Below are positions 1,510 through 17,686 of a DNA stretch of 32,000 nt, piece after piece. The notes beneath the pieces were generated by a model. The model was not told the origin of the DNA and did no database searches. It saw only the letters and a list, made by a program, of their open reading frames with translations. The stretch lies in NCBI GenBank assembly GCA_017624735.1, contig JAGAMK010000032.1, positions 8,719 to 40,718 of the forward strand, written 5' to 3'. The position numbers and the translations under genes were made by a program. The stretch is from Clostridia bacterium (GTDB taxonomy: Bacteria > Bacillota > Clostridia > Oscillospirales > Acutalibacteraceae). The stretch's first letter is position 1. Every line of letters starts with the position of its first letter.

Positions 1510-1529
1510 CAAAATCACCTATTATATAA

Positions 1530-2255: not shown

Positions 2256-2387
2256 AACATATTTTCCTTTAAATTATTTATGATTAAACATTTTAACAGA
2301 TTTATCAAAATAAAACAACAAAAAAACAAAAAAATAATAGACAAAAATTGTAAAAAGATGTAGTATAGATTATAAGGAGGAGTTATT

Positions 2388-3359
2388 ATGAATGAAAAAC
2401 AAAAAAAGTTGCTTAAAACAGCAGGTGCTATTGTTACAGCAGCAAGTGCAACATATTTTTTAATAGGAAACGCTTTTTATTATGTTACACTTACAAGAAG
2501 TGGTATGAAAAATCCTTATGTGGCAAAAGTTGCAAGTGGAACTAAGAAAAAAGATGATGAAAGACTTCGCCTTGATGCAATTAAAGAAGAAGGAAAATAT
2601 TGGTTTGATAGTGTGGACAAAGAAGAACTTATAATTAAATCGTCTACAACTAATAAATTCCTTCATGCAAATTACATTTTCCCTAAAAATCAAAGTGACG
2701 TTTTCGTGCTTATTATTCATGGATATACTTCCAGTCCTCGTGGCATGGGAATGTACGCACAGAAATATCATGAATTAGGATATAATGTAGTTCTACCAAG
2801 TCTTAATGGCCATGCTGATAGTGAGCAAGAAACTATAACAATGGGCTGGCAAGACAGATTAGATGTACTTGATTGGATTAATTTTATTGTCGAAAACTAT
2901 CCTGATTCTAAAATAATTATTCACGGCGAATCGATGGGTGCAGCAACAACAATGATGGTAACTGGAGAGAGTTTACCTGATAATGTGAAGGTTGCTGTTG
3001 CAGATTGTGGTTATACATCAGTTTGGGATATATTCAGCAATAAAATAAAGAATAACTTCAAAATGCACGAATTTCCAACATTATACTGTGCAAACACAGT
3101 TAATAAAATATACTCTGGTTTCGATTTTAAAGAAGCATCTTCTATTGAACAATTAAAAAAATCAAAAACTCCAACAATTTTTATTCATGGTGAAAAAGAT
3201 ACTTTCGTTCCTTATGCGATGTTAGACAAGGTTTACAATGCAGCTGCTTGTGAAAAAGATAAAGTTACCATTCCAAATTCCCCTCACGCAAGAAATGCTT
3301 GTGCTAACCCAGAGTTGTATTGGTCTTCAATACTTAATTTCATAAAGAGATACTTATAA
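2388..3359 (+). CDS. Membrane-anchored alpha/beta hydrolase (serine hydrolase)
   Basis: AGGAGG lies 6-7 nt upstream of the ATG. There is an N-terminal hydrophobic helix. The nucleophile elbow is HGESMGAA (G-x-S-x-G), with late D and H residues consistent with a catalytic triad. Confidence 0.8.
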   Translation: MNEKQKKLLKTAGAIVTAASATYFLIGNAFYYVTLTRSGMKNPYVAKVASGTKKKDDERLRLDAIKEEGKYWFDSVDKEELIIKSSTTNKFLHANYIFPKNQSDVFVLIIHGYTSSPRGMGMYAQKYHELGYNVVLPSLNGHADSEQETITMGWQDRLDVLDWINFIVENYPDSKIIIHGESMGAATTMMVTGESLPDNVKVAVADCGYTSVWDIFSNKIKNNFKMHEFPTLYCANTVNKIYSGFDFKEASSIEQLKKSKTPTIFIHGEKDTFVPYAMLDKVYNAAACEKDKVTIPNSPHARNACANPELYWSSILNFIKRYL

Positions 3360-3400
3360 AAAAATTGTCCGTAATACAAAATGTATTACGGACAATTTTT
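3358..3400. terminator. Bidirectional rho-independent terminator between convergent genes
   Basis: Perfect hairpin attgtccgtaataca-aaa-tgtattacggacaat, flanked by an A-run on the left and a T-run on the right. Confidence 0.85.
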
Positions 3401-5448
3401 TAGATTCCTGCTGCTATTTGAAGTATTTTTCTTGCATCAATTGCAGTTACTTTACCATCATTATTAATATCAGCACACTTTAATTGTTGAGAATTAAGTG
3501 ATTTTATTCCGGCTGCATATTGTAATACATGTCTTGCATCAATTGCAGTTACTTTTCCGTCGTTGTTAACATCGCCTATTATATAATCACCAGTAACAAC
3601 AACTTTGCATGCAGCTGAAAGATTACCTACTTTTGCGGTAACAATAGCTTCACCTTTACCAACTGCTGTTACTTTGCCGTTTTCCACCTTAACGACATTA
3701 TCGTTAGATGACAACCAAGTCACTGTCTTGTCATCCGTAGTGTCAACAGGATTAAAGGATACAGTTAAATTTTTAGTTTCACCTAATGATAAAGTCAAAG
3801 TTGCTTTATCTAAAGAAATAGATTTAAGCGGAATTTTTTCAGCTTCTCCGCGAATAATTTCTATGCTATAAGTTCTAACATCACCATTTTCGGCAGTTAC
3901 AATTATCTTAAAATGATTAATGCCTTCATTAAGCGAACACTTGCCCACGCCTTTAATTGTAGCTTTTGAGTTAACTGCTTTAGCCGAAATATTAACTGAT
4001 GAAACATCATGTGACACACTCAATGAATAACCAGTTGTTTTGGCAGCATCAAAACTCAAACTATAACCTTCTATTGAAAGCGAACTTAACCAGTTATTAG
4101 GATTAGCATTAGATGCTACAGGTAGTTGACACGGTTCTGCAGGCATATTTTTATAATATGGGATAATAAATGTAAAGCTATGGTCTAATATATCTAAATT
4201 GGAATATGTTTTTCTAATATGTACGGATTCTGTTGCGGGAGCTGTAATATTAGCCATATACTGATGATTCCAGTTCTTATTTACCACATTAAATTTTTGA
4301 TAATATAATGTGTCTTGATTATTGTTTATATACCCATTACCTATCCATTTTGCACCACCGACAATTGCTTTATATGGTGAATCCCAAGGTAAATTATACT
4401 TGGATTTTTCAGATGATGATGCATTTACACCTGATGCGTATTTAAGCCCTTCACCTATTGGATTGCTACCGGATGCAGCCATAATATTGTAATAATTATA
4501 ATAACCGTTATAGCCGGGATATGTACCACTTGTTGAGCCACTGCCGTTAGTACCTACTTCTTGAACTGTTCTTGAAGCAAGATGGAATGGACTGACACCG
4601 GAAATCTTTGCAGCCTCAATATATGCCTGTGCATAAGATATTTGATTACCATTAGTATCGGTAATCAGTTTATCTTCCATGAAGGTTCCTTTTAATATCT
4701 TTTCAACACCATCAATTGTTTGAGTCTTTTCATCATAAGATAAAGCTTCAAACATAAAGATATTATTATCATTCAGGAAATTTCTTGGGTCCATGTAGTG
4801 GAAAATGGTTTTATCGTTTGCATGGTACCATCCACCGCTGTCCGTTGCAATCCAACTATCTGTTCTCCAGTTATAACAGTCTTTTTCAGTTGAACGATAG
4901 GACAAAGGAAAAGTTTTATAAATCATACTCTTTAAACGGTCGCCTTGTGCATCATCTGATATCAAAGTTGACCATTCTATTCCTGTATCATAAAACTTAA
5001 ATTTCCAATTTGGATGTGTCTTTGCAAGATTTTCAATATATTCCTTATAAATCTCCGGTACATCTTCAGGTAATTCAATATCACCTGACGGTGTTTCAAC
5101 AACTCGTACAAAATTAGCATAAACATATCCTTCAAATTCAATACCGTCATATTTAAATTTAATATGATGCCAAGTTTTATAAGTCGTATCACCATCACTA
5201 TCAACAGTTTCAATAATTGAAACCTCGTGTCCTGTATCCAGCATTATATTACTGCCATTATGTTTAAGCTTATTATCCTTAGTAGTTGTTGGACCTTTTC
5301 TAACAAAAACATTATCATCAATAATATATCCCTTTTTTATATCAGAACTTGCATATGCCGAAAAGAATCCAGAAAAAGACATTAAGGTTGAAACAACTAA
5401 TACTAGAGATATAAGTCTGTTTAAAAACTTATTCTTCAAAACTTTCAC
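3400..5448 (-). CDS. Secreted multidomain cell-wall hydrolase: SH3-like, GH73 N-acetylglucosaminidase-like, cadherin-like beta-sandwich, Big_2 and type I dockerin domains
   Basis: Signal peptide: KVLKNKFLNRLISLVLVVSTLMSFSGFFSAYA. GH73-like core: GVSPFHLASRTVQEVGTNGSGSTSG...YNYYNI. Big_2 domain: ATLTLSLGETKNLTVSFNPVDTTDDKTVTWLSSNDNVVKVENGKVTAVGKGEAIVTA. The C-terminus has a duplicated dockerin Ca-binding repeat (GDVNNDGKVTAIDARHVLQYAAG and ADINNDGKVTAIDARKILQIAAG). The start is uncertain: GTG 5448 or TTG 5439 is preferred over the TTG at 5499 used by the track. Confidence 0.8.
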   Translation of the reverse strand: MKVLKNKFLNRLISLVLVVSTLMSFSGFFSAYASSDIKKGYIIDDNVFVRKGPTTTKDNKLKHNGSNIMLDTGHEVSIIETVDSDGDTTYKTWHHIKFKYDGIEFEGYVYANFVRVVETPSGDIELPEDVPEIYKEYIENLAKTHPNWKFKFYDTGIEWSTLISDDAQGDRLKSMIYKTFPLSYRSTEKDCYNWRTDSWIATDSGGWYHANDKTIFHYMDPRNFLNDNNIFMFEALSYDEKTQTIDGVEKILKGTFMEDKLITDTNGNQISYAQAYIEAAKISGVSPFHLASRTVQEVGTNGSGSTSGTYPGYNGYYNYYNIMAASGSNPIGEGLKYASGVNASSSEKSKYNLPWDSPYKAIVGGAKWIGNGYINNNQDTLYYQKFNVVNKNWNHQYMANITAPATESVHIRKTYSNLDILDHSFTFIIPYYKNMPAEPCQLPVASNANPNNWLSSLSIEGYSLSFDAAKTTGYSLSVSHDVSSVNISAKAVNSKATIKGVGKCSLNEGINHFKIIVTAENGDVRTYSIEIIRGEAEKIPLKSISLDKATLTLSLGETKNLTVSFNPVDTTDDKTVTWLSSNDNVVKVENGKVTAVGKGEAIVTAKVGNLSAACKVVVTGDYIIGDVNNDGKVTAIDARHVLQYAAGIKSLNSQQLKCADINNDGKVTAIDARKILQIAAGI

Positions 5449-5495
5449 ATCCTTTTTACTAATACATAATATTTTAACAAAAAACACAAAAATCG

Positions 5496-6698
5496 TCAAG
5501 ATTCATATATTTCCATTATTTTCATAATATTTTCTTTTTCAGTTTCCAGTACTGAATTATCTGTATTTTTTGTTAAAAAGGATGAAGAATATATTGAAAA
5601 TCCTTTTAAATTATTATTGATGACATCTGATATTTGTCTTGATATTATATCAGAGTTATTTAACCATTCTTGTTTTCCCGATTTAGCATACGAATCTGTT
5701 TTACCTGACTTATAAATACCTAAACCAATTATAAGTTTAGAATTATTTATAGACATCCATTTAAACAATGTATTTGCAAACGGTATATCCTCATTTTCAT
5801 AACCGTAGTATATTTGAGGTATAATATAATCAGCATAACCATCTTCGGTTAACCATTTAATTACATCTGCATAATGATTATTATAGTTTTTATCTATATC
5901 ACCACTTGGGCTAATACTAAAACATAAATCTTCATTAAAACTTTTTACTAATGCATAAATTGAGGTTACTAATGAGTTTATATTTCGCCTTCTATAATCA
6001 TCTAATTTTAGATTACCGCCTATCTCTTTATAGGAATTATATATTTCCTTATCAATATTCTCCGATGTAGTTGGATAAAAGTAATCGTCAATGTGAATAC
6101 CATCAACGGAATAATTATCAAGAATTTCTCGAATTCCATTTAATATATATTTCTGCACTTCAACATATGCAGGATTGTAATATATGTTATTATCTGTGAC
6201 AATTAATCTATCATTATATCCATCATTTAAATATCCATATGCTAAGGTATTTTCAGGAATTTTTCCTGTGTCATTGTCATTTCTTATTCTATAAGGGTTT
6301 ATCCAAGCATGTACTTCTATTCCTAAAGGTTTGCAAATATCAATAAAATTTTGTAAAACATCAAATTTGAGATTTCCTTCTTGATTAGCACAATATGTAC
6401 TAACAGGATAAATTTTTGATTTATAAAAACAATCATCGAAAGCTCGTACATGTAAAAAAACTACGTTAATATTATATTTTTTTAATGTGCTTACCATTTC
6501 GTGTATATTAATTTCAAATTCCTTCTCATTGTTAGAATTATTAACAAATTCTTTTATTTCCTGATATGTAATCCATGTTGCAATAATTTTTTTATCTTCT
6601 GCTTCAATAATTATATCGTCTTTTGAATCAAGTTGTATATTTGAACATGATGAAATCATAAATAAACATATAACAATCAAATAAAAAATTTTTTTCAA
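5496..6698 (-). CDS. Lipoprotein, glycosyl-hydrolase-like family 10 (GHL10/YngK-like, DUF187-type)
   Basis: Motifs VFLHVRAFDDCFYKSKIYP, HAWINPYRI and GIHIDDYFYP are typical of GHL10 TIM-barrel proteins. The likely start is TTG 6698 (after GGTGAG), giving MKKIFYLIVICLFMISSC with a lipobox cysteine. The track ORF extends to 6731. Confidence 0.7.
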   Translation of the reverse strand: MKKIFYLIVICLFMISSCSNIQLDSKDDIIIEAEDKKIIATWITYQEIKEFVNNSNNEKEFEINIHEMVSTLKKYNINVVFLHVRAFDDCFYKSKIYPVSTYCANQEGNLKFDVLQNFIDICKPLGIEVHAWINPYRIRNDNDTGKIPENTLAYGYLNDGYNDRLIVTDNNIYYNPAYVEVQKYILNGIREILDNYSVDGIHIDDYFYPTTSENIDKEIYNSYKEIGGNLKLDDYRRRNINSLVTSIYALVKSFNEDLCFSISPSGDIDKNYNNHYADVIKWLTEDGYADYIIPQIYYGYENEDIPFANTLFKWMSINNSKLIIGLGIYKSGKTDSYAKSGKQEWLNNSDIISRQISDVINNNLKGFSIYSSSFLTKNTDNSVLETEKENIMKIMEIYES

Positions 6699-6724
6699 AA
6701 ACTCACCTTTTTTCAAAAAACATA

Positions 6725-6771
6725 TTGACAATATAACTTTTTATGTTATAATAACAGTAATCATTACTGTT
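6725..6771 (+). promoter_or_regulatory. Sigma-A-type promoter of the perR-rbr operon, with a 19-bp perfect palindrome (candidate PerR/Fur-family operator)
   Basis: TTGACA (6725-6730), a 16-nt spacer ending in TGt, then TATAAT (6747-6752). This is immediately followed by aacagtaat-c-attactgtt (6753-6771). Confidence 0.6.
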
Positions 6772-6786
6772 AGTGAGGTGAACAAA

Positions 6787-7167
6787 ATGGCAATTGAAAG
6801 AAAAAGCAAACAACGTGATGCAATAATTAATGAATTATGTTCACGTTACGACCATCCAACAGCTATGGAACTTTATCTTTCAGTAAGAGAGGTAATTCCA
6901 AACCTTAGTTTAGGAACGCTTTATAGAAATCTTTCCCAACTTGAAGAAAACGGTATGGTTTTGAGAATACCAGATGGTTCAACTGACCGTTTTGATGGAA
7001 ATGCTCACCCTCATGTCCATTTTAAATGTTCAATCTGTGGTAAAGTATATGATTTAATGTCATTTAAAAATGACTCTATCACCTTTTCTGATGAGATTAT
7101 AGGTAAAGTAAATAATTACAGTTTAATGGCTTTCGGCGAATGCAAACACTGTAATCAAATAAATTAA
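6787..7167 (+). CDS. perR: Fur-family transcriptional regulator, PerR-like peroxide-stress repressor
   Basis: The ATG at 6787 is preceded by GAGGTG (the track start GTG 6778 is less likely). HTH region: [36 protein letters not shown]. Two CxxC pairs (CSICG, CKHC) are present. The gene lies directly upstream of rubrerythrin. Confidence 0.75.
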
Positions 7168-7193
7168 ATTTTAAATTTTTGGAGGAAAAAGAA

Positions 7194-7739
7194 ATGAAAA
7201 AATTTGTATGTTCAGTATGTGGTTATGTTCATGAAGGAGATTCAGCACCAGAAAGATGCCCTCAGTGCAAAGTTCCTGCTGACAAATTCAATGAAATTAA
7301 AGAAGATGAAAGAACATGGGCAGCAGAACACGTTGTAGGTGTTGCTAAGGGTGTTCGTGAAGATATTATTATGGACCTTAGAGCAAACTTTGAAGGAGAA
7401 TGTTCAGAAGTTGGTATGTACCTTGCTATGGCAAGAGTTGCTCATCGCGAAGGCTATCCTGAAATTGGTCTCTACTGGGAAAAAGCTGCTTGGGAAGAAG
7501 CAGAACATGCTGCTAAATTCGCAGAACTTCTTGGTGAAGTTGTAACAGACAGCACAAAGAAAAACCTTGAAATGAGAGTTGACGCTGAAAATGGTGCAAC
7601 TGCAGGTAAATTTGACCTCGCTAAACGTGCTAAAGAACTTGGTCTTGATGCAATCCACGATACAGTTCATGAGATGGCTCGTGACGAGGCAAGACACGGG
7701 AAAGCATTTGAGGGACTTCTCAAGAGATATTTCGGTTAA
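7194..7739 (+). CDS. rbr: Reverse rubrerythrin (N-terminal rubredoxin-like CxxC...CxxC domain plus C-terminal diiron ferritin-like domain). The last ~13 codons past the attL core are supplied by the inserted element.
   Basis: GGAGG at 7181-7185 precedes ATG 7194. The N-terminus is [32 protein letters not shown]. ExxH diiron motifs are present ([20 protein letters not shown]). Confidence 0.9.
7674..7699 (+). repeat. attL core (26-bp perfect direct repeat)
   Basis: atggctcgtgacgaggcaagacacgg is identical to 15927..15952. It is embedded in a ~103-bp imperfect repeat (7659-7762 versus 15912-16015, about 17 mismatches by hand alignment). Confidence 0.85.
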
Positions 7740-7764
7740 TCCCCTTTCTCTATAAATATACTAT

Positions 7765-7797
7765 TACGAGTGGCTGAAAAGTCACTCGTATTTTTTT
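7765..7797 (+). terminator. Rho-independent terminator after the reconstituted rbr; lies on the element side of attL
   Basis: Hairpin tacgagtg-gctgaaaagt-cactcgta followed by ttttttt. Confidence 0.8.
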
Positions 7798-7820
7798 GTT
7801 TGTAAATACATAAGTCGTCA

Positions 7821-7978
7821 AAAAGTAGTCAATAAGACTTTAAAACACTTCTATTATCACCCAAAAGTGGTCATAAGAAAAAGTGGTCATCCTTGTAACA
7901 ACATATTAACAAAATTTATTTAACTATTCAACAAAATATTAACAAGTTTTCTACAACTTTTTTGAGAAAAATATTAAC
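7821..7978 (+). repeat. Left-arm repeat cluster (candidate integrase arm-type or accessory-factor sites)
   Basis: aaaagtagtca (7821-7831) and aaaagtggtca (7863-7873, 7879-7889) are present. taacaac at ~7896 is the inverse of the right-arm gttgtta. atattaac(a) occurs three times (7903, 7936, 7971) at ~33-35 bp spacing. Confidence 0.5.
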
Positions 7979-8014
7979 TTGTCGTTTTTAAAGCACAGGT
8001 TACTTGTTTTAGAG

Positions 8015-8023
8015 TGATATAAT
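8015..8023 (+). promoter_or_regulatory. Extended -10 promoter element upstream of the tandem paralog genes
   Basis: TGaTATAAT. I saw no convincing -35. The implied leader is ~150 nt before ATG 8176. Confidence 0.35.
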
Positions 8024-8175
8024 ATAGACACAACAAAGGGAGAGACACCAAAACAAAAAACCAAAAGGAGTGAGTAAACAAGAGGTAAATGGTTAATCCC
8101 TAAGTTAAATAAAACAATATTAAAATAATAAAAAATAAGGTGACGACTTACCGTTTTAAGAAAGGAAACTTCAAT

Positions 8176-8583
8176 ATGAAAAATACTATCAGAGAAACAA
8201 AAATTGACCTTGCAAACAACCTTACAATCGACCACGCAAACAAAACAATTACAGTGACAAAACAGTTCCAAAAGGCTTCAGGAAAATATGGTTCAGAAGA
8301 ATATTTAGTTTGTGAAGAACTTATGTCAAAGTTTAAAGACTATCGTTTTGTAGTAAGAACACAGAAAAAGAGAAAGTCAACAACACTCTCATATGATGAA
8401 ATGACAAAATACATTTCAAAGCACGACGATAACGGTGAAATCATGAATGAGTTCCTTGTTATGAGAGGCTTAAAAGCAAATGAAAACAATGAAAAGACAT
8501 CAGAGTCACCAAAAGAGATTAGAAATTGGTTTTTCACAAAATATCCTGAACTCAAGAAAATCAATGAAAAAAAAGTTGCTTAA
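8176..8583 (+). CDS. Hypothetical protein, paralog A of a tandem pair
   Basis: AAAGGAAA SD lies before ATG 8176 (the track ORF starts earlier at 8140). It shares with the next gene the blocks DHAN-K-I, F-V/I-VR, YD-x-M-x-KYI and W-F-x-x-KYPE, and the C-terminal KVA. Confidence 0.65.
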   Translation: MKNTIRETKIDLANNLTIDHANKTITVTKQFQKASGKYGSEEYLVCEELMSKFKDYRFVVRTQKKRKSTTLSYDEMTKYISKHDDNGEIMNEFLVMRGLKANENNEKTSESPKEIRNWFFTKYPELKKINEKKVA

Positions 8584-8606
8584 TTAAGAAAGGAAGGTAA
8601 TAAATT

Positions 8607-9029
8607 ATGGCAAAATCAAGAACACCTGTTAAATTCGACCATGCGAACAATAAAATAATTCTTTACAAATGGTTTGAGGAAAAAGCACGATACCCTAAGA
8701 ATGATGAATATACAATGCTTGCTAATTTTATAAAAAGTTTTCCAAATTATACTATAACTGTTCGTGATGATATAAAAACAAACAGTAAACAGGAACACTA
8801 CAAAGGGTTAAAATACGATTATATGGAAAAGTATATAAGAAGGTTTGAACCTGAAGAAACAAGAGAAGAAGTTCTCAAAGAACTTGAGGATAGAAAATTC
8901 ATAAGTCAGTGTCATTCAAAGGGGCATCGTTATCCCACAATAAAGAAATGGTTTTTAGAAAAATATCCTGAGGTAACAACAAATGGTATGCCAATTATTA
9001 CTGATACACCACTCGAAAAAGTTGCATAA
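8607..9029 (+). CDS. Hypothetical protein, paralog B of a tandem pair
   Basis: AAGGAAGG SD lies before the ATG. Similarity to 8176..8583 is visible by eye (FDHANNKIILYKWF, ITVRDDIK, YDYMEKYIRR, IKKWFLEKYPEV, EKVA). Confidence 0.65.
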   Translation: MAKSRTPVKFDHANNKIILYKWFEEKARYPKNDEYTMLANFIKSFPNYTITVRDDIKTNSKQEHYKGLKYDYMEKYIRRFEPEETREEVLKELEDRKFISQCHSKGHRYPTIKKWFLEKYPEVTTNGMPIITDTPLEKVA

Positions 9030-9061
9030 AAGGAAGAATAAATAATGAAACTTAATAAGAT

Positions 9062-9105
9062 AAAAACACCACTGAATTTTAAAGAGTTCAGTGGTGTTTT
9101 TGTTT
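9062..9105 (+). terminator. Rho-independent terminator after the paralog pair
   Basis: Hairpin aaaaacaccactgaa-ttttaaagag-ttcagtggtgttttt followed by a T-run. Confidence 0.85.
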
Positions 9106-9122
9106 GCGTTCGACCGTCCTTT

Positions 9123-9151
9123 TTGGACTTTATTAAAAAAAATTGTTATAA
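9123..9151 (+). promoter_or_regulatory. Strong sigma-A-type promoter of the TAG-containing operon
   Basis: TTGGAC (9123-9128), a 17-nt spacer ending in TGt, then TATAAT (9146-9151). Confidence 0.65.
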
Positions 9152-9221
9152 TATATTATAAGGTCGGACAATGTCTGATACTTTATTTACAAGAAATTTT
9201 ATATATTAAAGGAGTAGAAAA

Positions 9222-9407
9222 ATGTATAGTAAAAAAACTAAAAAAATTGATGTTCGCCTAACTGCAAAAGAGAAAGAGGAAATCCAATAGTAGGCAAAAA
9301 AGTATCACATGAACACAAGTCAATACATTAGGTTTATATGTGAAATGTGGAGGATTTGCGAAAATGGGCATAATCAATCAAGCACCAATATTGAAGTCGA
9401 AGGGTGA
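9222..9407 (+). CDS. Ribbon-helix-helix (CopG/MobC-like) protein. Complete only if the tandem in-frame TAG-TAG (9288-9293) is read through; otherwise a pseudogene.
   Basis: AAAGGAG lies 7 nt before ATG 9222. The conceptual product is MYSKKTKKIDVRLTAKEKEEIQ-XX-AKKYHMNTSQYIRFICEMWRICENGHNQSSTNIEVEG. The R-L-T-x-x-E-K...A-x-x-x-x-M-x-x-S-x-YIR pattern typical of RHH proteins spans the TAG pair. Confidence 0.6.
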
Positions 9408-9915
9408 AAAAAACAGAGATAAAAAATGGGGTATGGCAATAAGAACACATGAACTTGAAACAATACTTTTTAATGGTCTGACAGGAAAACAAGGTGCATA
9501 GTTAAAACTGATGTTATTTTTGACAGGAAATGCAGACAACGGAAGTTTTGCAATCGCAGAGGCAACAGTTATGAGCCGTTGTGGAATGTCAGAAACAACA
9601 TACAAGAGTGCAAGAAAATCATTGGTAGAAAAAGGTTGGATAATCCACAAACCAAGTGTAAACGGTCAACAGGGTGAAATCATTGTGGATTATGATACAA
9701 TTTATAAAAGTGCAGAGAGGGATGTTGATAATACCCCTTCCCCTGACATTGAAAATACCCCTTCAAATTCTGATTGTTCCTCGGCAGGGGTTATTGAATA
9801 TACACATAATAATAAAGTTGAAAAAACAAATAATAATATTATAAAATCAAATATTATAAACAAACCAAAAGTAAATGATGAGTTCAGTGATGAGAAAGAA
9901 AACTTCATATTTTAA
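9364..9915 (+). CDS. Putative replication-initiator/replisome-organizer-like winged-helix protein. Requires read-through of the in-frame TAG at 9499-9501; otherwise a pseudogene.
   Basis: GGAGGA lies 9 nt before ATG 9364. The product is ...WGMAIRTHELETILFNGLTGKQGA-X-LKLMLFLTGNADNGSFAIAEATVMSRCGMSETTYKSARKSLVEKGWIIHK..., so the wHTH-like segment straddles the TAG. The ATG at 9511 used by the track has no SD. Confidence 0.55.
9726..9764 (+). repeat. Two 15-bp direct repeats (iteron-like) inside the Rep-like gene linker
   Basis: tgataataccccttc (9726-9740) and tgaaaataccccttc (9750-9764). Related ATACCCC(T) motifs occur at 10749, 10897 and 11009. Confidence 0.5.
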
Positions 9916-9932
9916 GAAAAAGGAGAATTCAA

Positions 9933-10367
9933 ATGAGTAAATATGCAGACTATATTTACAACAAATATTTAGAATAGGAATGGTCAAAAGAATTTGACTG
10001 TGCAGGGGTCTATTCAATAACCGTCAACAATAAAATTGTATATGTTGGTAAAAGTAAAAATATACTCTACAGAATGGCAGAACATTGGATTTCAATGGCA
10101 AATCCAAAAGAAAACAAATACAAAGTATTATCAGAGGCAAGAAGTAGAAAATATAAAATTCGATTTAATATTTTACATACTGCATCAAGTCGCACAATGG
10201 ATGAAATTGACGAGGAAATAGGAGAAAGAGAGGGTTATTTTATTCGTCTCTACACTCCCCCTCTTAATTATCAAATTCCAAAAGAGGAAAATTGGAGAAA
10301 ATTTAAAATTAACAGGGGTGCATTGAATATATCCCTTGATTAGATTTTGGAAGGAGAAATTATATGA
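9933..10367 (+). CDS. GIY-YIG nuclease-domain protein. Has an in-frame TAG at 9975-9977 and a second TAG at 10341-10343, followed 7 codons later by a TGA that overlaps the next ATG.
   Basis: AGGAG lies 7 nt before ATG 9933. The product is MSKYADYIYNKYLE-X-EWSKEFDCAGVYSITVNNKIVYVGKSKNILYRMAEH...EREGYFIRLYTPPLNYQ (GIY...YVG...R...E...N pattern). The GVY motif lies upstream of the track start at 10074, and that start has no SD. Confidence 0.6.
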
Positions 10368-10552
10368 ATAAAGAAATGTTAGAAACATTACGAGACTTAG
10401 GAAAAGTCCCTGACTTATTCTATTATCAACTCAATGGAAAGTCGGCAAATGAAAATTTTAGAGAATAGAGAAATAATTTTCTTGAATTATTAGAAAATTC
10501 TGATGAACCTGAAACCATAAAAATCATCACGGAAAGTAAGGTGAAAGAATAA
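10364..10552 (+). CDS. Small hypothetical protein (62 codons) with an in-frame TAG at 10466-10468
   Basis: GGAAGGAG SD lies before ATG 10364. The frame continues after the TAG to TAA 10550-10552, which abuts the next ATG (10553), itself preceded by AAGGTGAAAG. Confidence 0.45.
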
Positions 10553-10699
10553 TGGCAAACATAAAAGAAAGAAACAAGAAAAAACAAAAAAAGAAGAAAA
10601 ACATACTCGAGTCAGAAATTCTTGCAATTTTGCAAAAAAGTTTAAAAACTGCACTCGATATGGCACTTGATGAATTATTAAAAGACTTCAAGTAATACA
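10553..10699 (+). CDS. Small basic/helical hypothetical protein (48 aa)
   Basis: MANIKERNKKKQKKKKNILESEILAILQKSLKTALDMALDELLKDFK. An SD is present and a terminator follows. Confidence 0.4.
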
Positions 10700-10700
10700 A

Positions 10701-10743
10701 ACGGCAAACCAAGAGAAACAATCTCAAGGTTTGCCGTATTTTG
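10701..10743 (+). terminator. Rho-independent terminator ending the TAG-containing operon
   Basis: Hairpin acggcaaacc...ggtttgccgt followed by atttt. Confidence 0.6.
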
Positions 10744-11008
10744 CGTTTATACCCCTTTTGGCTCGTTTGACGAGTAAAACATCATTCTATCCTTTACAGT
10801 CATAAAAACCGTAATTCAGAATGAAATACACACTTAGACGGAGAATGAGCCACGCACAATTACAAATTGAGTGGCACAAAATTTTTATCCTGAAATATAC
10901 CCCCTACTTACCTGTTCATAAAAACAAATGATTTCATGAACATTATTAGGTGACAAATAATGTAGTAAATTTAACCGTCAAAACACAGGATTTTGTTCAC
11001 GAAATAAC

Positions 11009-11236
11009 TTACCCCTTTTCATGAACATCAGAGTCTTTTACATACTCCATAAGGTCGGCAGGTTGACAATCAAACTTTTCACAAAGTCGAGAAAGGGTTT
11101 TGCGGTCTAATCCACCTGTTCCGTTCTTTAATGCAGTCAATGTTCCCTGCCCTATCAATTTGTCTTGACGGATTTTGTATGTTGTATAACCATTATCCTT
11201 CAAAAGTTTGAATAGTTTATCATATATTATTGGCAT
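11009..11236 (-). CDS. XRE/Cro-CI family helix-turn-helix regulator (75 aa)
   Basis: AAGGAGGC SD lies before the ATG at 11236. The product is MPIIYDKLFKLLKDNGYTTYKIRQDKLIGQGTLTALKNGTGGLDRKTLSRLCEKFDCQPADLMEYVKD. The track ORF has an unsupported N-terminal extension to 11320. Confidence 0.7.
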   Translation of the reverse strand: MPIIYDKLFKLLKDNGYTTYKIRQDKLIGQGTLTALKNGTGGLDRKTLSRLCEKFDCQPADLMEYVKDSDVHEKG

Positions 11237-11264
11237 ATAAAAAGCCTCCTTTTCCATTGTCCAT

Positions 11265-11371
11265 ATTATATCAAAGAATATGCACAAAGTCAAGTGTATA
11301 AAATAAACAAGTATATGCACCTAACTTTGTGCATATTGCCGATTGACTATACACTTAACTTAGTGTATAAT
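11265..11371. promoter_or_regulatory. Divergent promoter/operator switch region
   Basis: The leftward promoter on the minus strand is TTGACT (11293-11288), 17 nt, TATAAT (11270-11265). The rightward promoter is TTGACT (11343-11348), 17 nt, TATAAT (11366-11371). A 14-bp perfect inverted repeat is present: aatatgcacaaagt (11277-11290) and actttgtgcatatt (11325-11338). The palindrome tatacact-taactt-agtgtata (11348-11369) overlaps the rightward -10. Confidence 0.65.
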
Positions 11372-11408: not shown

Positions 11409-11684
11409 ATGTCAAACAACGAAATCATCAAAAATATTGAGGCACTCACAGAATGGGAAACAATCATTGAGGATGCAAAGGCAGAAGCCGAAGCAATCAG
11501 AGATATGCTAAAGGCAGAAATGCTCGAACAGAACATTGAAGAACTTGAGGCAGGAACATACATCATCCGTTGGACATCAGTTCTTACAAATAGATTTGAT
11601 ACAACGGCATTTAAGAAATCTCATGGTGATATGTATAAAGAGTTCACAAAGCAAGTTAGTAGTCGTCGTTTCTCAATTTCATAA
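11409..11684 (+). CDS. Hypothetical 91-aa protein (helical, acidic N-terminus), first gene of the rightward operon
   Basis: AAAGGAG SD lies before the ATG. It is an uninterrupted ORF ending in TAA. Confidence 0.55.
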   Translation: MSNNEIIKNIEALTEWETIIEDAKAEAEAIRDMLKAEMLEQNIEELEAGTYIIRWTSVLTNRFDTTAFKKSHGDMYKEFTKQVSSRRFSIS

Positions 11685-11736: not shown

Positions 11737-12342
11737 ATGAATTATGGATACGCAAGGTGTTCCACTAACGAGACTAAACAAGACATTCAGAGGCAAGTCA
11801 AGGAACTCAAAAACGCAGGGGCAAAAGAAATATTCCTTGAATACGAACATGGTGACAGTGCAATAAAACAAGAACTTTCATTCCTTTTGGAACAGGCTCG
11901 TGAGGGTGATACAATTTACACTCTTGAAGTCTCGAGACTTGCACGAAGTACAAAACAACTTTGTGAGATTATAGAAACAGTCAAAGACAAAAAACTTAGA
12001 CTTGTTATTGTTGGAAGTATCACGGTTGATTGTTCTAACGGTCAGATTGACCCAATGACAAACGCGTTCATTCAAATGTCTGGAGTGTTTGCGGAACTCG
12101 AACTCCGTATTATCAGGGCAAGAGTGCGTTCAGGCGTTGCAAATGCGAAGGCAAAAGGGATTAAAGTCGGGCGACCGCAAACAACAACAGACCAAATCCC
12201 ACCAATATTCTTCAGACATTATCCTGCGTTCAAATCTGGCAGTCTGAATCTTTCAGAATTTGCTCGCGTCTGCGGTCTGAGTAGAAACACAGTTTATAAA
12301 TATCTTTCTCTTTTGGAGACACAAAAACAGGGAACGAAATAA
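11737..12342 (+). CDS. Small serine recombinase (resolvase/invertase family, ~201 aa)
   Basis: The product from ATG 11737 is MNYGYARCSTNETKQDIQRQVKELKNAGAKEIF... (Y-A-R-x-S catalytic serine motif). It also has LEVSRLARS and a C-terminal HTH (LSEFARVCGLSRNTVYKYL). The track ORF start at 11536 overlaps the previous gene and is rejected. Confidence 0.85.
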   Translation: MNYGYARCSTNETKQDIQRQVKELKNAGAKEIFLEYEHGDSAIKQELSFLLEQAREGDTIYTLEVSRLARSTKQLCEIIETVKDKKLRLVIVGSITVDCSNGQIDPMTNAFIQMSGVFAELELRIIRARVRSGVANAKAKGIKVGRPQTTTDQIPPIFFRHYPAFKSGSLNLSEFARVCGLSRNTVYKYLSLLETQKQGTK

Positions 12343-12362: not shown

Positions 12363-13193
12363 TTATAACCCTAATAATTCTTTTTTCTTTGCATCAAATT
12401 CTTCTTGTGTGATTGCACCCATATCAAGAAGTTCTTTGAATTTTTTAAGTTCATCCGCAATAGAAACGGCAGGCTGTGAAGTCGCCACAGTCTGTGTTTT
12501 AATAGCCTCAAATTCTTCATCGGAAATTATAGCAAGGTTTGTTGAGTTACACTGAGGGCAACGATTGAAATCAACAATTTTATTCAGACTGTTCTGTGCG
12601 TTTGTCTGATTAACAGCACTTGCAGTATACGCACCGCCTAAACCACCTGCAATTTGTCCAATGCTTGACCACATAGCACTTTTGGCATTACTTATGTTTT
12701 TCTTAATATCAGCCTGATTATAGCAAAAGATATGTCCGCAAACATTACAACGTTTTCTTATTTCCTTATTAGGGTCTGGTTTTTCCACTTTAACTTTTTC
12801 AATATCATATTCACCTGCATAAGTTTTTTCAGGAACATTAAAGCCATTTTTCTTTTTAATTTCTACATTTCCTAAATGTTTTTGAAGTCTGTTGGCAAGT
12901 GATTCAATAATATGATACTTATCTTTTGACGGTGAATTTAAAATAAATGTGTAAACACCTTGTCTATTGATATATCGAGTACCTTTAATAATAAATCCAA
13001 TTTGTCCTACTGTAAGAAGTCCAGGCTTTAACAATTCTATACCTGTAATATCAGAGAATGGCACTTCAATAATAGTATCAACACCAACACTGTTAGTAAA
13101 CAAACCTTTTACCGTTGACCTGAAACAATTCTCATCGAAATCAAATTCATACTTTTGCATACCATTGTTAATCGTCACTAAATTTTCACTCAT
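12363..13193 (-). CDS. PH-like (bacterial PH/DUF4429-type) / split zinc-ribbon / SHOCT-domain protein
   Basis: GGAGGA lies 9 nt before the ATG at 13193 (MSENLVTINNG...). Motifs include LLTVGQIGFIIKG and CNVCG...CPQC. The C-terminal ELKKFKELLDMGAITQEEFDAKKKELLGL matches the SHOCT pattern. Confidence 0.65.
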   Translation of the reverse strand: MSENLVTINNGMQKYEFDFDENCFRSTVKGLFTNSVGVDTIIEVPFSDITGIELLKPGLLTVGQIGFIIKGTRYINRQGVYTFILNSPSKDKYHIIESLANRLQKHLGNVEIKKKNGFNVPEKTYAGEYDIEKVKVEKPDPNKEIRKRCNVCGHIFCYNQADIKKNISNAKSAMWSSIGQIAGGLGGAYTASAVNQTNAQNSLNKIVDFNRCPQCNSTNLAIISDEEFEAIKTQTVATSQPAVSIADELKKFKELLDMGAITQEEFDAKKKELLGL

Positions 13194-13208
13194 TTTTTTC
13201 ATTCCTCC

Positions 13209-13249
13209 AAAATAAAAAAGTGTGTGCAAACCGAAGTTATGCACACACG
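13209..13249 (-). terminator. Intrinsic-terminator-like hairpin inside the 5' leader, ending directly at the SD of the SHOCT gene (possible attenuator)
   Basis: On the minus strand: gtgtgtgca-taacttcggtt-tgcacacac, followed by ttttttatttt and then GGAGGA. Confidence 0.5.
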
Positions 13250-13272
13250 AAAAACACAAACTCCGTTTTGCT

Positions 13273-13388
13273 ACCACACAAAAATTTCATTCTAACAAAA
13301 GGAATATGAAATCAAGAAGTCTGTGTTTTTACCGAGATATAAACACTTACTCCTTCTGTTAGAACAATATAGAATTTTTGTGTGGTGT
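13273..13388. repeat. Long imperfect inverted repeat (~116 bp overall, with 14-bp perfect outer arms)
   Basis: accacacaaaaatt (13273-13286) pairs with aatttttgtgtggt (13375-13388). Inner arm segments ttctaaca and aagga also pair. Confidence 0.7.
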
Positions 13389-13500: not shown

Positions 13501-14520
13501 ATGTCCAAAAGACAAAATCAAAAACTAAAAACATTATATGTTGCACAATACTTTCTTGAAAACTCTGATGAAAATCATTCTGTTAATGCAAGTGATATTA
13601 GAGACTACCTAATGGATGAGCATAAAATTATATGTGAACGCCGTTCCATTTACAGTGATATTTCTGCTCTGCGTGATGAGTTCGGCATGGATATTGAGTC
13701 TGTTAAGGGTGGTAAATACAGGCTTTTATCAAGACAATTTAACTTTGAAGATTTACGGCTTTTGGCTCAGTGCGTTTATGCCACCAAATTTATTTCTGAA
13801 AACCGAGCACACAAACTTGTTGAAACCATAGGTGAATTTTGTAGTATATATCAAAGAGAAGAACTTGAGGCAGAAGTTTTTCTTTGCGACCGTGTTAAAA
13901 CAACAGAAAACAACCTTTTATTTCCTCTAAGTGAAATCAATTATGCTATGTCAACAAGGTATGAAGGCAAACCAAGAAAACCATCAAAAATAACATTTAA
14001 ATACACAAAATACACCATTGACGATATACATTCTCAAGTAGAATGTCGCAAAGGTTCAAAATACAAAGTAAGCCCCTACAAACTAATAATCAATGAGGGA
14101 AACTATTATTTATTAGCCTATGATGACCGATATAAAGATATGAGAACTTTTCGTGTTGACCGTATGCAAGAAGTAAAAGCAACCGAAGAACCAAGAGAAG
14201 GAAATGAAATCTTTGACGGTGTTGACCTCAGAACATACACAAAAAGAGTTTTCTCTATGTTCAGTGGTGAAAACAAGCGTGTTAGTATGAGATTTAATAA
14301 TTCACTTATTAGTGCAGTAATCGAAAGATTTGGTAATAAATCTGATGTTACTTACAGACCTGACGGCAAAAGCAATTTCATAGTAATTGCTGATGTGGAA
14401 ATCAGTGACCAATTTTACGCATGGATGTGTGGTTTTCGCAAGAGAGCAAGTATTGTTCATCCCCCTGAAGTTGTTGAAGGAATGAAAAATTTCTTAAAAG
14501 ATATTGAAAGTAAATATTAA
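13501..14520 (+). CDS. WYL-domain transcriptional regulator (N-terminal wHTH plus WYL plus C-terminal WCX-like region)
   Basis: AAGGTGAAA SD is present. The HTH-like N-terminus is ASDIRDYLMDEHKIICERRSIYSDISALRDEFG. The WYL region is SPYKLIINEGNYYLLAYDDRYKDMRTFRVDRM. Confidence 0.8.
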   Translation: MSKRQNQKLKTLYVAQYFLENSDENHSVNASDIRDYLMDEHKIICERRSIYSDISALRDEFGMDIESVKGGKYRLLSRQFNFEDLRLLAQCVYATKFISENRAHKLVETIGEFCSIYQREELEAEVFLCDRVKTTENNLLFPLSEINYAMSTRYEGKPRKPSKITFKYTKYTIDDIHSQVECRKGSKYKVSPYKLIINEGNYYLLAYDDRYKDMRTFRVDRMQEVKATEEPREGNEIFDGVDLRTYTKRVFSMFSGENKRVSMRFNNSLISAVIERFGNKSDVTYRPDGKSNFIVIADVEISDQFYAWMCGFRKRASIVHPPEVVEGMKNFLKDIESKY

Positions 14521-14526: not shown

Positions 14527-14560
14527 GCAGGAAGCAAATTAAAACTTCCTGCTATTTTTT
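14527..14560. terminator. Terminator between the convergent WYL and integrase genes
   Basis: Hairpin gcaggaag-caaattaaaa-cttcctgc followed by tatttttt. Confidence 0.7.
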
Positions 14561-15776
14561 ATAACTTATTTAGATTATCACGCAGTATTTCAATACCTGT
14601 TTTGGACATTGAGATATAGTATTTTTCTGTTACTTTTGAACTACTGTGACCCATTTGATTACACAATAAATGCGTTGGTGTGTTCATGTCTGCCATAGCC
14701 GTTCCGTAAGTATGTCTTAAATAATGAAATTTAAAAGTTAAATTATGTATTTCTTTTAACCTGCGTGTATGATATTTCATTGAATTTACAGTCTGAATTT
14801 TACCATTATCAACTGTATTAACTAATTCAAGAGAAGAAATCATTTGACCGTCAATATCTGTAATAAATATCTGATTTTGAAGTCTGACTTCTTTCAGATT
14901 TTGTTCTACCTCTATCCTCTTTTCTGATAGTTCTGATAAATATCTTTGTAACATATCATTCATGTATATTGTTCTTTTGGCGTTCCTTGTTTTTAAAGAA
15001 ACAAGTTTAATTAGTCCATTCTGATATTGCATTTGACGGTCAATGATAATCACACCTTTTTCTACATCAACATTATCCCACTTCAGACCGTAACATTCAT
15101 TTATTCTCAAACCGCTGAATTTACCAAGATAATACGCAGTTTCTCCATTACTACCTGAAAAATAATCATCAAGTATTCTGATTTCTTCTTTAGAAAATGT
15201 AACAACATCATCCTCATCATCAGTTTTTCTTTTAGGCATATGAATTTTTGTGCCTTTATTCAAACATAGTTTACTATAAATTTCACTATCAAGATAATCT
15301 CTTGAATATGCTTGACCGAAAATAAGATAGAACATTTTGAGAAATGCTTCCACATAACCATATGCCCTGCCCTCATTGTAATAAAGATATGAAAGATAAT
15401 CATTGATTTCTGCGACTGTAATATCATCAATATATCTATCACCGAACTTATCACAAATATGATTTTTCCATAAAGAGTCCTGCTTTTTAATTGTTGTATA
15501 TGCTTTGTCATATCTTCCTTTTTCACAGTATTCTTCATACACCTGTCTAACTGTTACTATACCAAGAGAACTGCGAACAGAAAGATATTCTGATTGTCTA
15601 TATTTTTTTATTGCTTCTGTTCTTGCCCTCTTGGCTTGAGTCTGAGTTCTAAAAACATTTCCATTTTCGTCTTTTCTTTTACGATAATGAGTTTTTTTAC
15701 CACTTTTAGTAACGGTAAACCTATATTCCCAATTACCATTATTAAGTTGATAAACGCCTGTTTCCTTCTTTTTCAT
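14559..15776 (-). CDS. int: Tyrosine site-specific integrase (phage integrase family) with an N-terminal arm-binding-type domain
   Basis: GGAGTG SD lies before the ATG at 15776. The N-terminus is GVYQLNNGNWEYRFTV. C-terminal catalytic signatures are GLRINECYGLKW, HYLRHTYGTAMA and GHSSSKVTEKYY (R...H-x-x-R...Y). Confidence 0.9.
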   Translation of the reverse strand: MKKKETGVYQLNNGNWEYRFTVTKSGKKTHYRKRKDENGNVFRTQTQAKRARTEAIKKYRQSEYLSVRSSLGIVTVRQVYEEYCEKGRYDKAYTTIKKQDSLWKNHICDKFGDRYIDDITVAEINDYLSYLYYNEGRAYGYVEAFLKMFYLIFGQAYSRDYLDSEIYSKLCLNKGTKIHMPKRKTDDEDDVVTFSKEEIRILDDYFSGSNGETAYYLGKFSGLRINECYGLKWDNVDVEKGVIIIDRQMQYQNGLIKLVSLKTRNAKRTIYMNDMLQRYLSELSEKRIEVEQNLKEVRLQNQIFITDIDGQMISSLELVNTVDNGKIQTVNSMKYHTRRLKEIHNLTFKFHYLRHTYGTAMADMNTPTHLLCNQMGHSSSKVTEKYYISMSKTGIEILRDNLNKL

Positions 15777-15794
15777 CAATTATCACTCCATTTT

Positions 15795-15911: not shown

Positions 15912-15992
15912 GATACAGTTCACGAAATGGCTCGTGACGAGGCAAGACACGGTAAGGCATTTGAAGGTCTTTTGAACAGATATTTTAAATAA
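15912..15992 (+). pseudogene. rbr: Displaced original 3' end of rbr (last 26 codons plus stop), with no start codon or upstream coding sequence
   Basis: It translates as [26 protein letters not shown]. The intact gene ends ...[26 protein letters not shown]. Confidence 0.85.
15927..15952 (+). repeat. attR core (26-bp perfect direct repeat)
   Basis: Identical to 7674..7699. Confidence 0.85.
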
Positions 15993-16014
15993 TCCCCTAT
16001 CACAATAAATACAC

Positions 16015-17148: not shown

Positions 17149-17686
17149 CCTTCATTGCCTCCTTAACATAATTTTTAACAAATTGCATTGATTGCATACT
17201 TCTTTTTCTTACCATAGGCTCTGTCATATTGAGTTCTTTACTTATTTCTATTGCACTCATTTGATAAATATGTTTAAGATAAAATACTTGTTTGTTTAAT
17301 TCAGGCAAAGCATCAATTGCTTCTTTTAAGAGCATTGTGTCGCAAATGTCAAATTCTTCTTCACCAATGCTATAAAAATCTTCAAGGTCGTAATCAACTA
17401 CATTATTTTTGTGCTTTCTCTCTTTTCTGTACATATCAATTGCTATACATTTTGATATAACCATAACATAGTTTCTAAATTTCTTATCGTCAAAATCTTG
17501 TGTTATGTTATGAAAATTTTTCGCAAAGTGAATTAGTACTTCCTGTGAACAGTCTTCCGCTGCCTCTTTAGTTTTTAAATGTTGCTTTGAAATATAGAAA
17601 ATAGTGTCATAAAACTTATCATAGAATTCTTCAAAACGAGGCTTGTCCTCCGGATTTTGAAGTAACATTAAGCATAATGAAATCAT
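17141..17686 (-). CDS. ECF-type RNA polymerase sigma-70 family factor
   Basis: Region-2-like AEDCSQEVLIHFAKNF...YVMVISKCIAIDMYRK and a region-4 HTH (MSAIEISKELNMTEPMVRKR). Confidence 0.75.
   Translation of the reverse strand: MISLCLMLLQNPEDKPRFEEFYDKFYDTIFYISKQHLKTKEAAEDCSQEVLIHFAKNFHNITQDFDDKKFRNYVMVISKCIAIDMYRKERKHKNNVVDYDLEDFYSIGEEEFDICDTMLLKEAIDALPELNKQVFYLKHIYQMSAIEISKELNMTEPMVRKRSMQSMQFVKNYVKEAMKDE

Follow-up and report, generated by a model that had tools for sequence, protein, structure and literature searches.

The locus described here raises the question of how a small mobile element can maintain genes crossed by in-frame amber codons in a host that uses TAG as a stop signal. The window, that is the whole stretch of 32,000 nucleotides that was analysed (positions 8,719 to 40,718 of contig JAGAMK010000032.1, GenBank assembly GCA_017624735.1), comes from a gut Clostridia genome of the Acutalibacteraceae and holds an 8.25-kb element integrated site-specifically between two attachment (att) repeats. 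A preliminary description of this sequence had pointed to one operon of the element, with six TAGs in four consecutive genes, as a case of amber read-through or recoding in a standard-code host. In about 20 non-identical relatives the same operon is interrupted by TAG and by no other stop codon, and its frames are maintained by purifying selection on both sides of the TAGs. We consider it rather probable that this is a phage-derived, satellite-like element whose replication/nuclease operon would be gated by amber suppression supplied in trans. Unless a contig is named, positions given below are those of the window; labels beginning with L (loci and contigs) and P (proteins) are our own.

The operon lies on the forward strand, with a promoter-like site ahead of it (9124..9152, +; TGGACT, a 17-nt spacer and TATAAT with an extended TG), and is flanked on both sides by hairpins with T-runs. 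The upstream hairpin, read directly from the sequence at about 9067-9106 after the gene g0b, separates the operon from the element genes g0a and g0b; the downstream one is located at about 10701-10737. The first gene, g1 (9222..9407, +, 61 codons), encodes a NikA/CopG-like ribbon-helix-helix (RHH) protein, carries tandem TAGs at 9288-9293 and stops at a TGA (9405-9407). It is followed by g2 (9364..9915, +, 183 codons), a winged-helix Rep/DnaD-like initiator with one TAG (9499-9501, hereafter the Rep TAG), by g3 (9933..10367, +, 144 codons), a GIY-YIG nuclease (PF01541) resembling T4 endonuclease II (EndoII) and containing TAGs at 9975-9977 and 10341-10343, and by g4 (10364..10552, +, 62 codons), which has no assigned function and one TAG (10466-10468). 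The last gene of the operon, g5 (10552..10695, +, 47 codons), encodes a basic protein and is without TAG in the window. Each of the four ATGs of g1-g4 (9222, 9364, 9933 and 10364) is preceded by AGGAG or GGAGG.

Retranslation placed the six in-frame TAGs exactly where they had been reported (9288-9290, 9291-9293, 9499-9501, 9975-9977, 10341-10343 and 10466-10468) and found zero TAA, TGA or frameshift in g1-g4 ahead of their terminators. The domains recognised in the preliminary description also continue across the TAGs: the NikA-like RHH family PF21983 matches residues 4-37 of g1, tandem TAGs included, and two replication-initiator families of the PHROG database (phrog_186 and phrog_270) match residues 18-181 of g2, spanning the Rep TAG; the GIY-YIG call on g3 corresponds to PF01541. 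The best match of g3 by sequence among solved structures is T4 EndoII (2wsh, E=3.7e-4). Two points of detail are amended. The tight packing of the genes holds insofar as stops overlap or abut the following starts, the TGA of g3 overlapping the ATG of g4 for example, but g1 overlaps g2 by 44 nt and does not abut it. The TAG at 10341 is in frame and reading continues beyond it as proposed, but taken alone it could pass as a terminator, because the TGA comes only 7 codons further. This codon is GAT or GAC in 5 relatives, and the frame always reaches a stop overlapping or abutting the next start (ATGA in the window). As a separate observation, a short hairpin, GTCGGACAATGTCTGAT, is located at 9163-9179 between the promoter-like site and the start of g1; a similar sequence is apparently present upstream of g1 in L001 and L002 too and could be an operator or an element of the 5' untranslated region.

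Protein and locus searches recovered 36 relative loci, about 20 of them non-identical, from metagenome-assembled genomes (MAGs) assigned to Clostridia, Oscillospirales, Acutalibacteraceae and Ca. Fimenecus, obtained from guts of goat, water deer and others, and further from JGI metagenomes of goat-gut enrichments and assemblies of ENA and Logan. The five-gene operon (RHH, Rep, GIY-YIG and two small open reading frames, ORFs) and the core gene order are kept in these relatives. TAGs are present in g1-g4 of every copy and occasionally in g5, which has one TAG each in L012 and L017. In codon alignments of the non-identical relatives, 26 columns contain TAG and none contains TAA or TGA; some of these columns are common to many lineages, others are lineage-specific, and tandem TAGs occur. 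Of the single-step nonsense opportunities that these AT-rich genes offer, only about 31% lead to TAG, and the probability of an all-TAG outcome by chance is about 7e-14, in agreement with the earlier view that the pattern is unlike random decay. The related copies, where decay had been expected to appear as TAA, TGA or indels, are interrupted by TAG only. The lengths of the read-through frames are moreover nearly constant (59-61 codons for g1, 183-186 for g2, 143-148 for g3 and 58-67 for g4), and these frames end in the relatives at TAA or TGA stops overlapping or abutting the following start.

It had also been asked whether the sequence downstream of the TAGs evolves neutrally. The ratio dN/dS was computed by the Nei-Gojobori method between the window and diverged relatives (dS 0.55-1.6). 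Over the 137 codons of Rep downstream of its TAG it is mostly 0.16-0.35, reaching 0.39-0.49 in the most divergent relatives, and over the 45 codons upstream it is mostly 0.04-0.15, with 0.35-0.42 in two comparisons. For the GIY-YIG gene the values after the TAGs are 0.09-0.17. Purifying selection, and not neutrality, is thus found downstream of the TAGs (0.16-0.49 for Rep and 0.09-0.17 for GIY-YIG).

Decay, artefact and split genes are rejected on the basis of the TAG-only columns, the constant lengths, the low dN/dS and the scarcity of restart sites. Pseudogenisation, a mutational bias such as C-to-T deamination of CAG, or an error of assembly or sequencing have a practically negligible probability. 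CAG becomes TAG by a single transition, and CAG is indeed found in other lineages at many TAG columns; such a bias would nevertheless produce TAA from CAA, the commoner codon in the operon (116 CAA vs 87 CAG), where zero TAA is observed, and the 479 CAG codons of the other element genes gave no TAG. The pattern is moreover repeated in independent NCBI, ENA, JGI and Logan assemblies, and the sequence is under purifying selection; the comparative data effectively refute these explanations. It is likewise extremely improbable that TAG acts as a true stop and that the downstream parts are made by re-initiation, the resulting polypeptides assembling with each other. An ATG does occur 3 codons past the Rep TAG (9511), and public annotation calls fragments of this kind (P0021 and P0098). 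A Shine-Dalgarno-like motif with an in-frame start within 15 codons is found at only 7 of 87 TAG sites, however, and LKLILF, without Met, follows the Rep TAG in several lineages. The TAG positions furthermore shift between lineages, form pairs and triplets, and fall inside the RHH and GIY-YIG folds.

The confinement of TAG to one transcription unit, inferred at first from the window, holds in every relative. Over the family, the operon contains 89 TAG to 203 CAG+CAA codons, and the other element genes 0 to 841 (Fisher P=4e-58); in the window alone the counts are 6:11 and 0:60 (P=5e-5). The genes g0a and g0b, the HTH_26 regulator, p91, the resolvase, the WYL regulator, DUF6809 and all the integrases are TAG-free in every copy. 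As previously counted, the 13 element genes of the window terminate with TAA (11) or TGA (2) and none with TAG, and across the element family TAG terminates about 1 gene in 170. Conversely, host genes of the window do end in TAG, namely rlmN, rsmB, the DUF4367 gene downstream of an extracytoplasmic function (ECF) sigma factor and a spoVM-like ORF (17789), all four already listed in the preliminary description. Among the host ORFs of at least 60 aa in the window, 17 end in TAA, 4 in TGA and 3 in TAG, to which the TAG-ended spoVM-like ORF is to be added; taken over all loci, the host flanks have 69 long ORFs, 5 of which end in TAG. Within 21739-23511, the TAG of rlmN is in frame with the downstream gene without any intervening stop, so that read-through would generate an RlmN fusion, which argues against constitutive suppression in the host. 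To judge from the ends of its own genes, the host is standard-code for TAG.

The residue read at TAG was deduced only from loci in which the codon itself (CAG or CAA) was read. At the TAG columns the homologues have an aligned residue, and neither a gap nor an end, and this residue is most commonly Gln, which represents 31-35% of the residues aligned to TAG against a background of 2.9%, followed by Lys, Glu, Asp and Met. A consistent Gln had been named beforehand as the sign of a code-15-like recoding; Gln is enriched tenfold, and several columns are aligned with Asp, Glu, Lys or Met. The correspondence is clearest in conserved motifs. TAG takes the place of Gln in NTSQYIR of g1, where the 13 other unique sequences have Gln, of the nearly invariant Gln of GAQLKL in Rep, of Gln in the N-terminal NQAP motif of Rep and in its GQQGE motif (both residues of the GQQGE pair being replaced in L020), and of Gln in the E-Q-R of g4. 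The Rep TAG column has TAG in 14 of 22 unique sequences and a genuine CAG in 3, the CAG being found in L016, L018, L022/L023 and L031-L035; the g4 TAG column has TAG in 5 lineages and Gln (CAG or CAA) in the remaining 8. At the tandem TAGs of g1, the relatives have TAG or GAG/CAG in column 23 of the codon alignment, and TAG or CAG/CAA/ACG in column 24. A decoding of TAG as Gln, as in genetic code 15, is most likely from these alignments.

It is by comparison very improbable that a host system reads TAG as pyrrolysine or as any other residue than Gln. ARAGORN labels any CUA anticodon as "Pyl" and some Firmicutes do encode pyrrolysine. Lys, on the other hand, is not enriched at the TAG columns (15% vs 11% background) where Gln is enriched tenfold, host housekeeping genes end in TAG, and pyl genes were not found in the flanks read.

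A homologous module is found in phages that use TAG in the same manner. L169 is a 14.7-kb contig encoding an integrase, an RHH protein, a small ORF, a DnaD/HTH_36 Rep and a GIY-YIG protein (43% identity with g3), followed by a large terminase, a portal, a MuF and a scaffold protein. Its 4162 codons include 34 in-frame TAGs, found in early as well as in late genes; its terminators are TAA and TGA only, and its integrase is TAG-free. The share of TAG among Gln-type codons is 24% in L169 vs 30% in the element operon. L163, a 31.5-kb contig (ENA ERZ28633507 scaffold_134) with capsid, tape-measure, amidase and NikA-like genes, has a GIY-YIG homologue (10001-10456) with six in-frame TAGs, three of them consecutive, one TAG being located at the Gln of the invariant PLNYQIP motif. 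The only TAG in the structural and lysis genes of L163 that were read is a doubtful one, at the position called as the start of the tape-measure gene. A TAG-free nuclease homologue is found in L165, a phage of standard code. The stretches read of L169 and L163 contain no tRNA and no homologues of g0a or g0b. It can be observed in passing that the pattern of L163 reverses the published one, in which late genes are recoded.

The operon order, content and TAG density of the element match the early region of code-15 temperate phages, and these resemblances could suggest a relic, i.e. a code-15 prophage of the Topaz/L169 type which lost its virion genes, the TAGs being inherited and the operon unexpressed. 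We regard this as very unlikely, given the purifying selection in lineages diverged to dS 0.5-1.6, the lack of TAA, TGA or frameshift in about 20 non-identical copies, and the recurrence of one compact architecture with three integrases, at least three integration sites and variable cargo. The same combination of a compact architecture with three integrases, at least three sites and variable cargo leads us to conclude that the elements carrying a TAG operon are an active family and not a single accident.

No tRNA(CUA) was detected by ARAGORN in the window or in any of the related element loci, and a permissive Rfam search of the element gave chance-level hits only and no tRNA. The element and the flanks read contained neither a suppressor tRNA nor a release-factor modulator. 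A detectable suppressor tRNA has been reported in only about 40% of TAG-recoded phages (bioRxiv 10.1101/2021.08.26.457843). Many phage contigs of IMG/VR carry a tRNA(CUA), according to a pattern scan.

Under the explanation that we favour, the element would be expressed in two coding regimes: the integrase, the WYL and HTH regulators, the resolvase, the cargo and g0a/g0b in the standard code, and the unit 9222-10695 in the manner of code 15. This unit would yield, besides a Rep initiator and a GIY-YIG nuclease resembling T4 EndoII, an RHH protein of the autoregulator type and two small proteins. The operon would be silent in an ordinary cell because the host terminates at TAG and the element is devoid of amber suppressor. 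In the resting cell, ribosomes would stop within 15-46 codons of g1-g4, and Rep and the nuclease would be absent whatever the transcription. The gate would most plausibly be opened by a TAG-recoded phage related to L169 which, on infection or induction, provides its tRNA(CUA), whereupon the element could replicate as a satellite, or the EndoII-like nuclease could attack DNA, or both. The GIY-YIG gene of L163, with its six TAGs, one triple, beside nearly TAG-free structural genes, fits with TAGs forming a dedicated gate. It is possible, though we advance it only tentatively, that the TAGs serve as a genetic-code sensor, the outcome being either a satellite hijacking code-15 helpers or a nuclease of abortive infection or exclusion that is triggered by the code change of an invading phage and destroys this phage.

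Several points weigh against this gating in trans. The source of the suppressor was not identified in the element and the readable flanks scanned; since 60% of the TAG-recoded phages are without a detectable suppressor tRNA, the absence of a tRNA in 8 kb is a weak sign of helper dependence, and a decoding mechanism of another kind, in cis or in the host, is possible. Gln is the likeliest decoding but not a proven one, since Asp, Glu, Lys or Met stand opposite TAG in several columns; many of the "full-length" database homologues with Gln at the Rep TAG are code-15 translations made by public pipelines and not independent evidence. They were set aside because P0004 (L029, 2254-2802) proved to be such a translation of a TAG-containing gene, mismatching its own gene under code 11. 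Searches of the element found no packaging-hijack gene (small terminase, capsid-size factor) and no regulatory sequence common with a particular phage, and a terminal-overlap test found no circular or excised element among the contigs.

The element or the host might also decode TAG without any phage, in the form of a self-contained switch in which the TAGs would give temporal control within the induction programme of the element itself. The decoding factor would then be either a non-canonical suppressor RNA that escapes ARAGORN and Rfam or a protein acting as a release factor 1 antagonist or retargeting tRNA-Gln, for which g0a and g0b would be candidates. The fact that 60% of TAG-recoded phages have no detectable suppressor tRNA, so that other mechanisms are already suspected, speaks for this possibility, as do the near-universal conservation of g0a and g0b, always in standard code and without family or fold match, and the high conservation of a non-coding region of 320 nt. 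This region, however, gives no support for a tRNA-like or structured RNA, homologues of g0a/g0b were not found in the stretches read of L169 and L163, and an amber code switch based on protein alone is without known precedent. We consequently see a phage-independent switch as rather unlikely, and gating by a suppressor of phage origin as the better account of the operon.

The boundaries and the other genes of the element are as follows. The left att repeat (7659..7761) is the 3' end of a host rubrerythrin gene (7179-7739, identified by Pfam) and the right one (15912..16014) is a displaced copy of this 3' end which still encodes the rubrerythrin C-terminus. The direct repeat extends over 103 nt, its two copies sharing 83% identity and being 8253 nt apart. 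Upstream of the operon, g0a (8140..8583, +) and g0b (8607..9029, +) encode conserved, TAG-free paralogous proteins (about 27% identity) which have in common a C-terminal W-F-x-x-Y-P-E motif. They are present in nearly every copy, with 0 TAG in all relatives. No family match was obtained for them in Pfam, PHROGs or PADLOC, and an AlphaFold2 model of g0b (pLDDT 76) had no match at E<0.5 in a fold search of the PDB.

Downstream of the operon, a conserved non-coding region (10696..11008) contains the terminator hairpin and T-run mentioned above. This stretch of roughly 320 nt has a mean column identity of 73% over 10 diverged lineages, a conservation exceeding that of much of the coding sequence, and its blocks CATTCAGACGGAGAGTGAGCCACGCA and TCCCGAAATACACCCCC are invariant or nearly so. 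Compensatory changes are confined to the terminator hairpin, and the region shows no tRNA-like fold and no Rfam or tRNA match. It is a candidate origin of replication (ori), Rep/RHH binding region or regulatory DNA. It is followed by a Cro/CI-type HTH_26 regulator (11009..11320, -; PF13443, E=5e-13), TAG-free here and in relatives, the true start of which is probably near 11236; divergent promoter-like sites are present in this region at 11293-11265 (-) and 11343-11371 (+). The rest of the element comprises p91 (11409..11684, +), a conserved and TAG-free protein of 91 aa matching phrog_6244 and resembling the RecE C-terminus, a serine recombinase/resolvase (11740..12342, +; PF00239, E=1e-28) with no in-frame TAG in relatives, a cargo gene in a variable slot (12363..13277, -) encoding a protein with a C-terminal SHOCT domain (PF09851), a WYL/WCX-domain regulator (13501..14520, +; TAG-free) and a tyrosine integrase (14559..15779, -; PF00589 and PF14659; TAG-free).

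Pfam and PHROG scans found no virion gene (structural, packaging or lysis) between the att repeats, and no virion family was hit among the called genes of the related copies. Families related to terminase, capsid or scaffold are missing among the element proteins, g0a/g0b, g4 and g5 being without assigned function, and so are relaxase families, for which the only match obtained was the NikA-like RHH. PADLOC reported the WYL regulator alone.

Across the relatives, three unrelated integrases are used, all TAG-free, and the integration sites are next to tRNA-Thr or tRNA-Pro or at the 3' end of the rubrerythrin gene. The far end of a 9.1-kb element is marked in L010 by a partial copy of the tRNA-Thr 3' half. 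A 96-nt "tRNA-Lys(ttt)" called by ARAGORN in this locus (8197-8292) was rejected as a tRNA gene and corresponds to this partial tRNA-Thr att duplicate, since over its 3' 46 nt it does not differ from the tRNA-Thr(ggt) at 17276-17351. According to the relative, the slot that separates the resolvase from the WYL regulator is occupied by leucine-rich repeat (LRR) proteins, by an Mrr/NA-iREase nuclease or by an Eco57I-type methyltransferase with a helicase, and looks like a defence-gene hotspot under WYL control. The coordinates of this slot are 12363-13277 in the window, 12953-18217 in L002, 5531-6646 in L029, 5762-7230 in L035 and 12954-13778 in L031; the nuclease variant was recognised as Mrr_cat/NA-iREase, and the Eco57I-type methyltransferase is accompanied by a T5orf172/ResIII helicase.

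Beyond this family, positions 8000-10800 matched neither the GenBank phages nor the PLSDB plasmids by blastn in distant mode. By tblastn, Rep was searched for in phages and plasmids and GIY-YIG in phages, equally without a match. The Rep profile retrieved no relative from IMG/VR; a p91 profile retrieved there three viral contigs, none of them recoded, which is uninformative.

The resemblance of the element to code-15 phages is extensive. TAG-recoded temperate gut phages of 22-34 kb, such as the Topaz and Garnet prophages, were described by Borges et al. (bioRxiv 10.1101/2021.08.26.457843), and code-15 crAss-like phages were validated by metaproteomics (PMC9523058). In these phages as in the element, TAG replaces Gln in conserved genes, is avoided as a terminator and is absent from integrase or lysogeny genes, and gut Firmicutes of standard code serve as hosts (Oscillospiraceae for Topaz). 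The Topaz prophage is integrated at a tRNA-Thr in an Oscillospiraceae genome and has a TAG-free integrase (bioRxiv 10.1101/2021.08.26.457843); relatives of the element also integrate at tRNA-Thr. The early RHH-Rep-GIY-YIG module of the code-15 phages L169 and L163 is homologous to the element operon. The element is nonetheless not a recoded phage, because it has neither virion genes nor suppressor: it is only 8-12 kb long, without capsid, tail, terminase or lysis genes and without suppressor tRNA. Its recoded part is moreover the replication/nuclease operon, unlike the published code-15 model in which late and lysis genes are recoded, and its standard-code backbone (g0a/g0b, HTH_26, p91, resolvase, WYL, cargo slot) is not in the related phages read.

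Satellites such as phage-inducible chromosomal islands (PICI), phage-inducible chromosomal minimalist islands (PICMI), P4-like elements and PICI-like elements (PLE) offer a second term of comparison. Like them, the element is small, possesses an integrase, a regulatory switch and its own replication module, lacks virion genes, and has a variable slot which in relatives holds restriction/defence-type genes. Structurally it is thus a satellite, with a putative helper dependence for which the TAG gating without a cis suppressor and the homologous module of code-15 phages are indirect indications. Satellites are triggered by a signal of the helper phage, and a similar triggering is what we propose for the element. 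The known ones sense helper proteins (antirepressors, etc.) through transcription or repressor inactivation, and we know of no satellite using the genetic-code switch of its helper. A further difference with satellites is that no packaging-redirection gene was found in the element. Integrative and mobilizable elements (IMEs) differ from it by their relaxase, none being detected here.

The arrangement of the operon also recalls the CopG-RepB replication cassettes of small Firmicute plasmids of the pMV158 family, in which a small RHH gene lies directly upstream of, and overlaps, the initiator gene of the same operon, just as g1 lies upstream of and overlaps g2. The initiator, however, is of the DnaD/winged-helix phage type and not a rolling-circle HUH protein, the operon adds an EndoII-like nuclease, and there is no match in PLSDB. 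As regards this nuclease, g3 and T4 endonuclease II (DenA, a GIY-YIG nicking enzyme, 2wsh) have in common the GIY-YIG core and a comparable length (144 vs 143 aa); their similarity is distant, and neither a substrate nor a role is assigned to g3.

A search of the literature found no report of stop-codon recoding in satellites, IMEs or plasmids. Descriptions of stop-codon recoding have so far, to our knowledge, concerned phages, which time their own late genes by it. What is new here is the presence of recoded genes in a small, widespread and non-virion integrative element, in which the replication/nuclease module is recoded and the rest is standard-code, with no suppressor aboard. It operates in the manner of code-15 recoding in phages, some of which have a module homologous to the operon. 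The idea that a co-infecting phage might be sensed by recoded genes through its suppressor tRNA was put forward earlier (bioRxiv 10.1101/2021.08.26.457843), and the element gives this speculation a concrete, small and testable form. Should the gate prove to be opened in trans, the element would be the first mobile one using the genetic-code switch of another as a signal, and would provide a testable model of satellite-helper or defence interactions among recoded gut phages. An element of 8 kb, with a defined operon containing six TAGs and a candidate ori, constitutes a tractable system in this respect.

Some additional observations concern phage contigs. On the 96-kb viral contig L039-L042, L039 (IMGVR_UViG_3300045988_073130; 6480-7193 and 9267-10447) has a Rep-like winged-helix gene followed by a GIY-YIG homologue (47% identity) with 2 in-frame TAGs, as well as a uracil-DNA glycosylase gene with one TAG. 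This last TAG falls where E. coli Ung presumably has Gln. Few additional TAGs and no tRNA were found in the stretches of this contig that were read, and the indications that it is recoded are only suggestive. Another contig, the 169-kb phage L047 (IMGVR_UViG_3300024270_001991), has at 995-8021 an array of 15 tRNAs ending in a 91-nt tRNA with a CUA anticodon. Its sample, 3300024270, is numerically adjacent to the goat-gut samples holding the element, and both would come from one project.

Finally, the databases hold conflicting versions of the operon proteins. Short contigs gave rise to full-length code-15 translations, in which Gln is written for TAG, and the NCBI annotation of the MAGs to code-11 fragments, among which are a 109-aa "hypothetical protein" and a 108-aa GIY-YIG protein (P0021 and P0098). 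In practical terms, public annotation truncates these genes, and other pipelines silently apply code 15 to short contigs.

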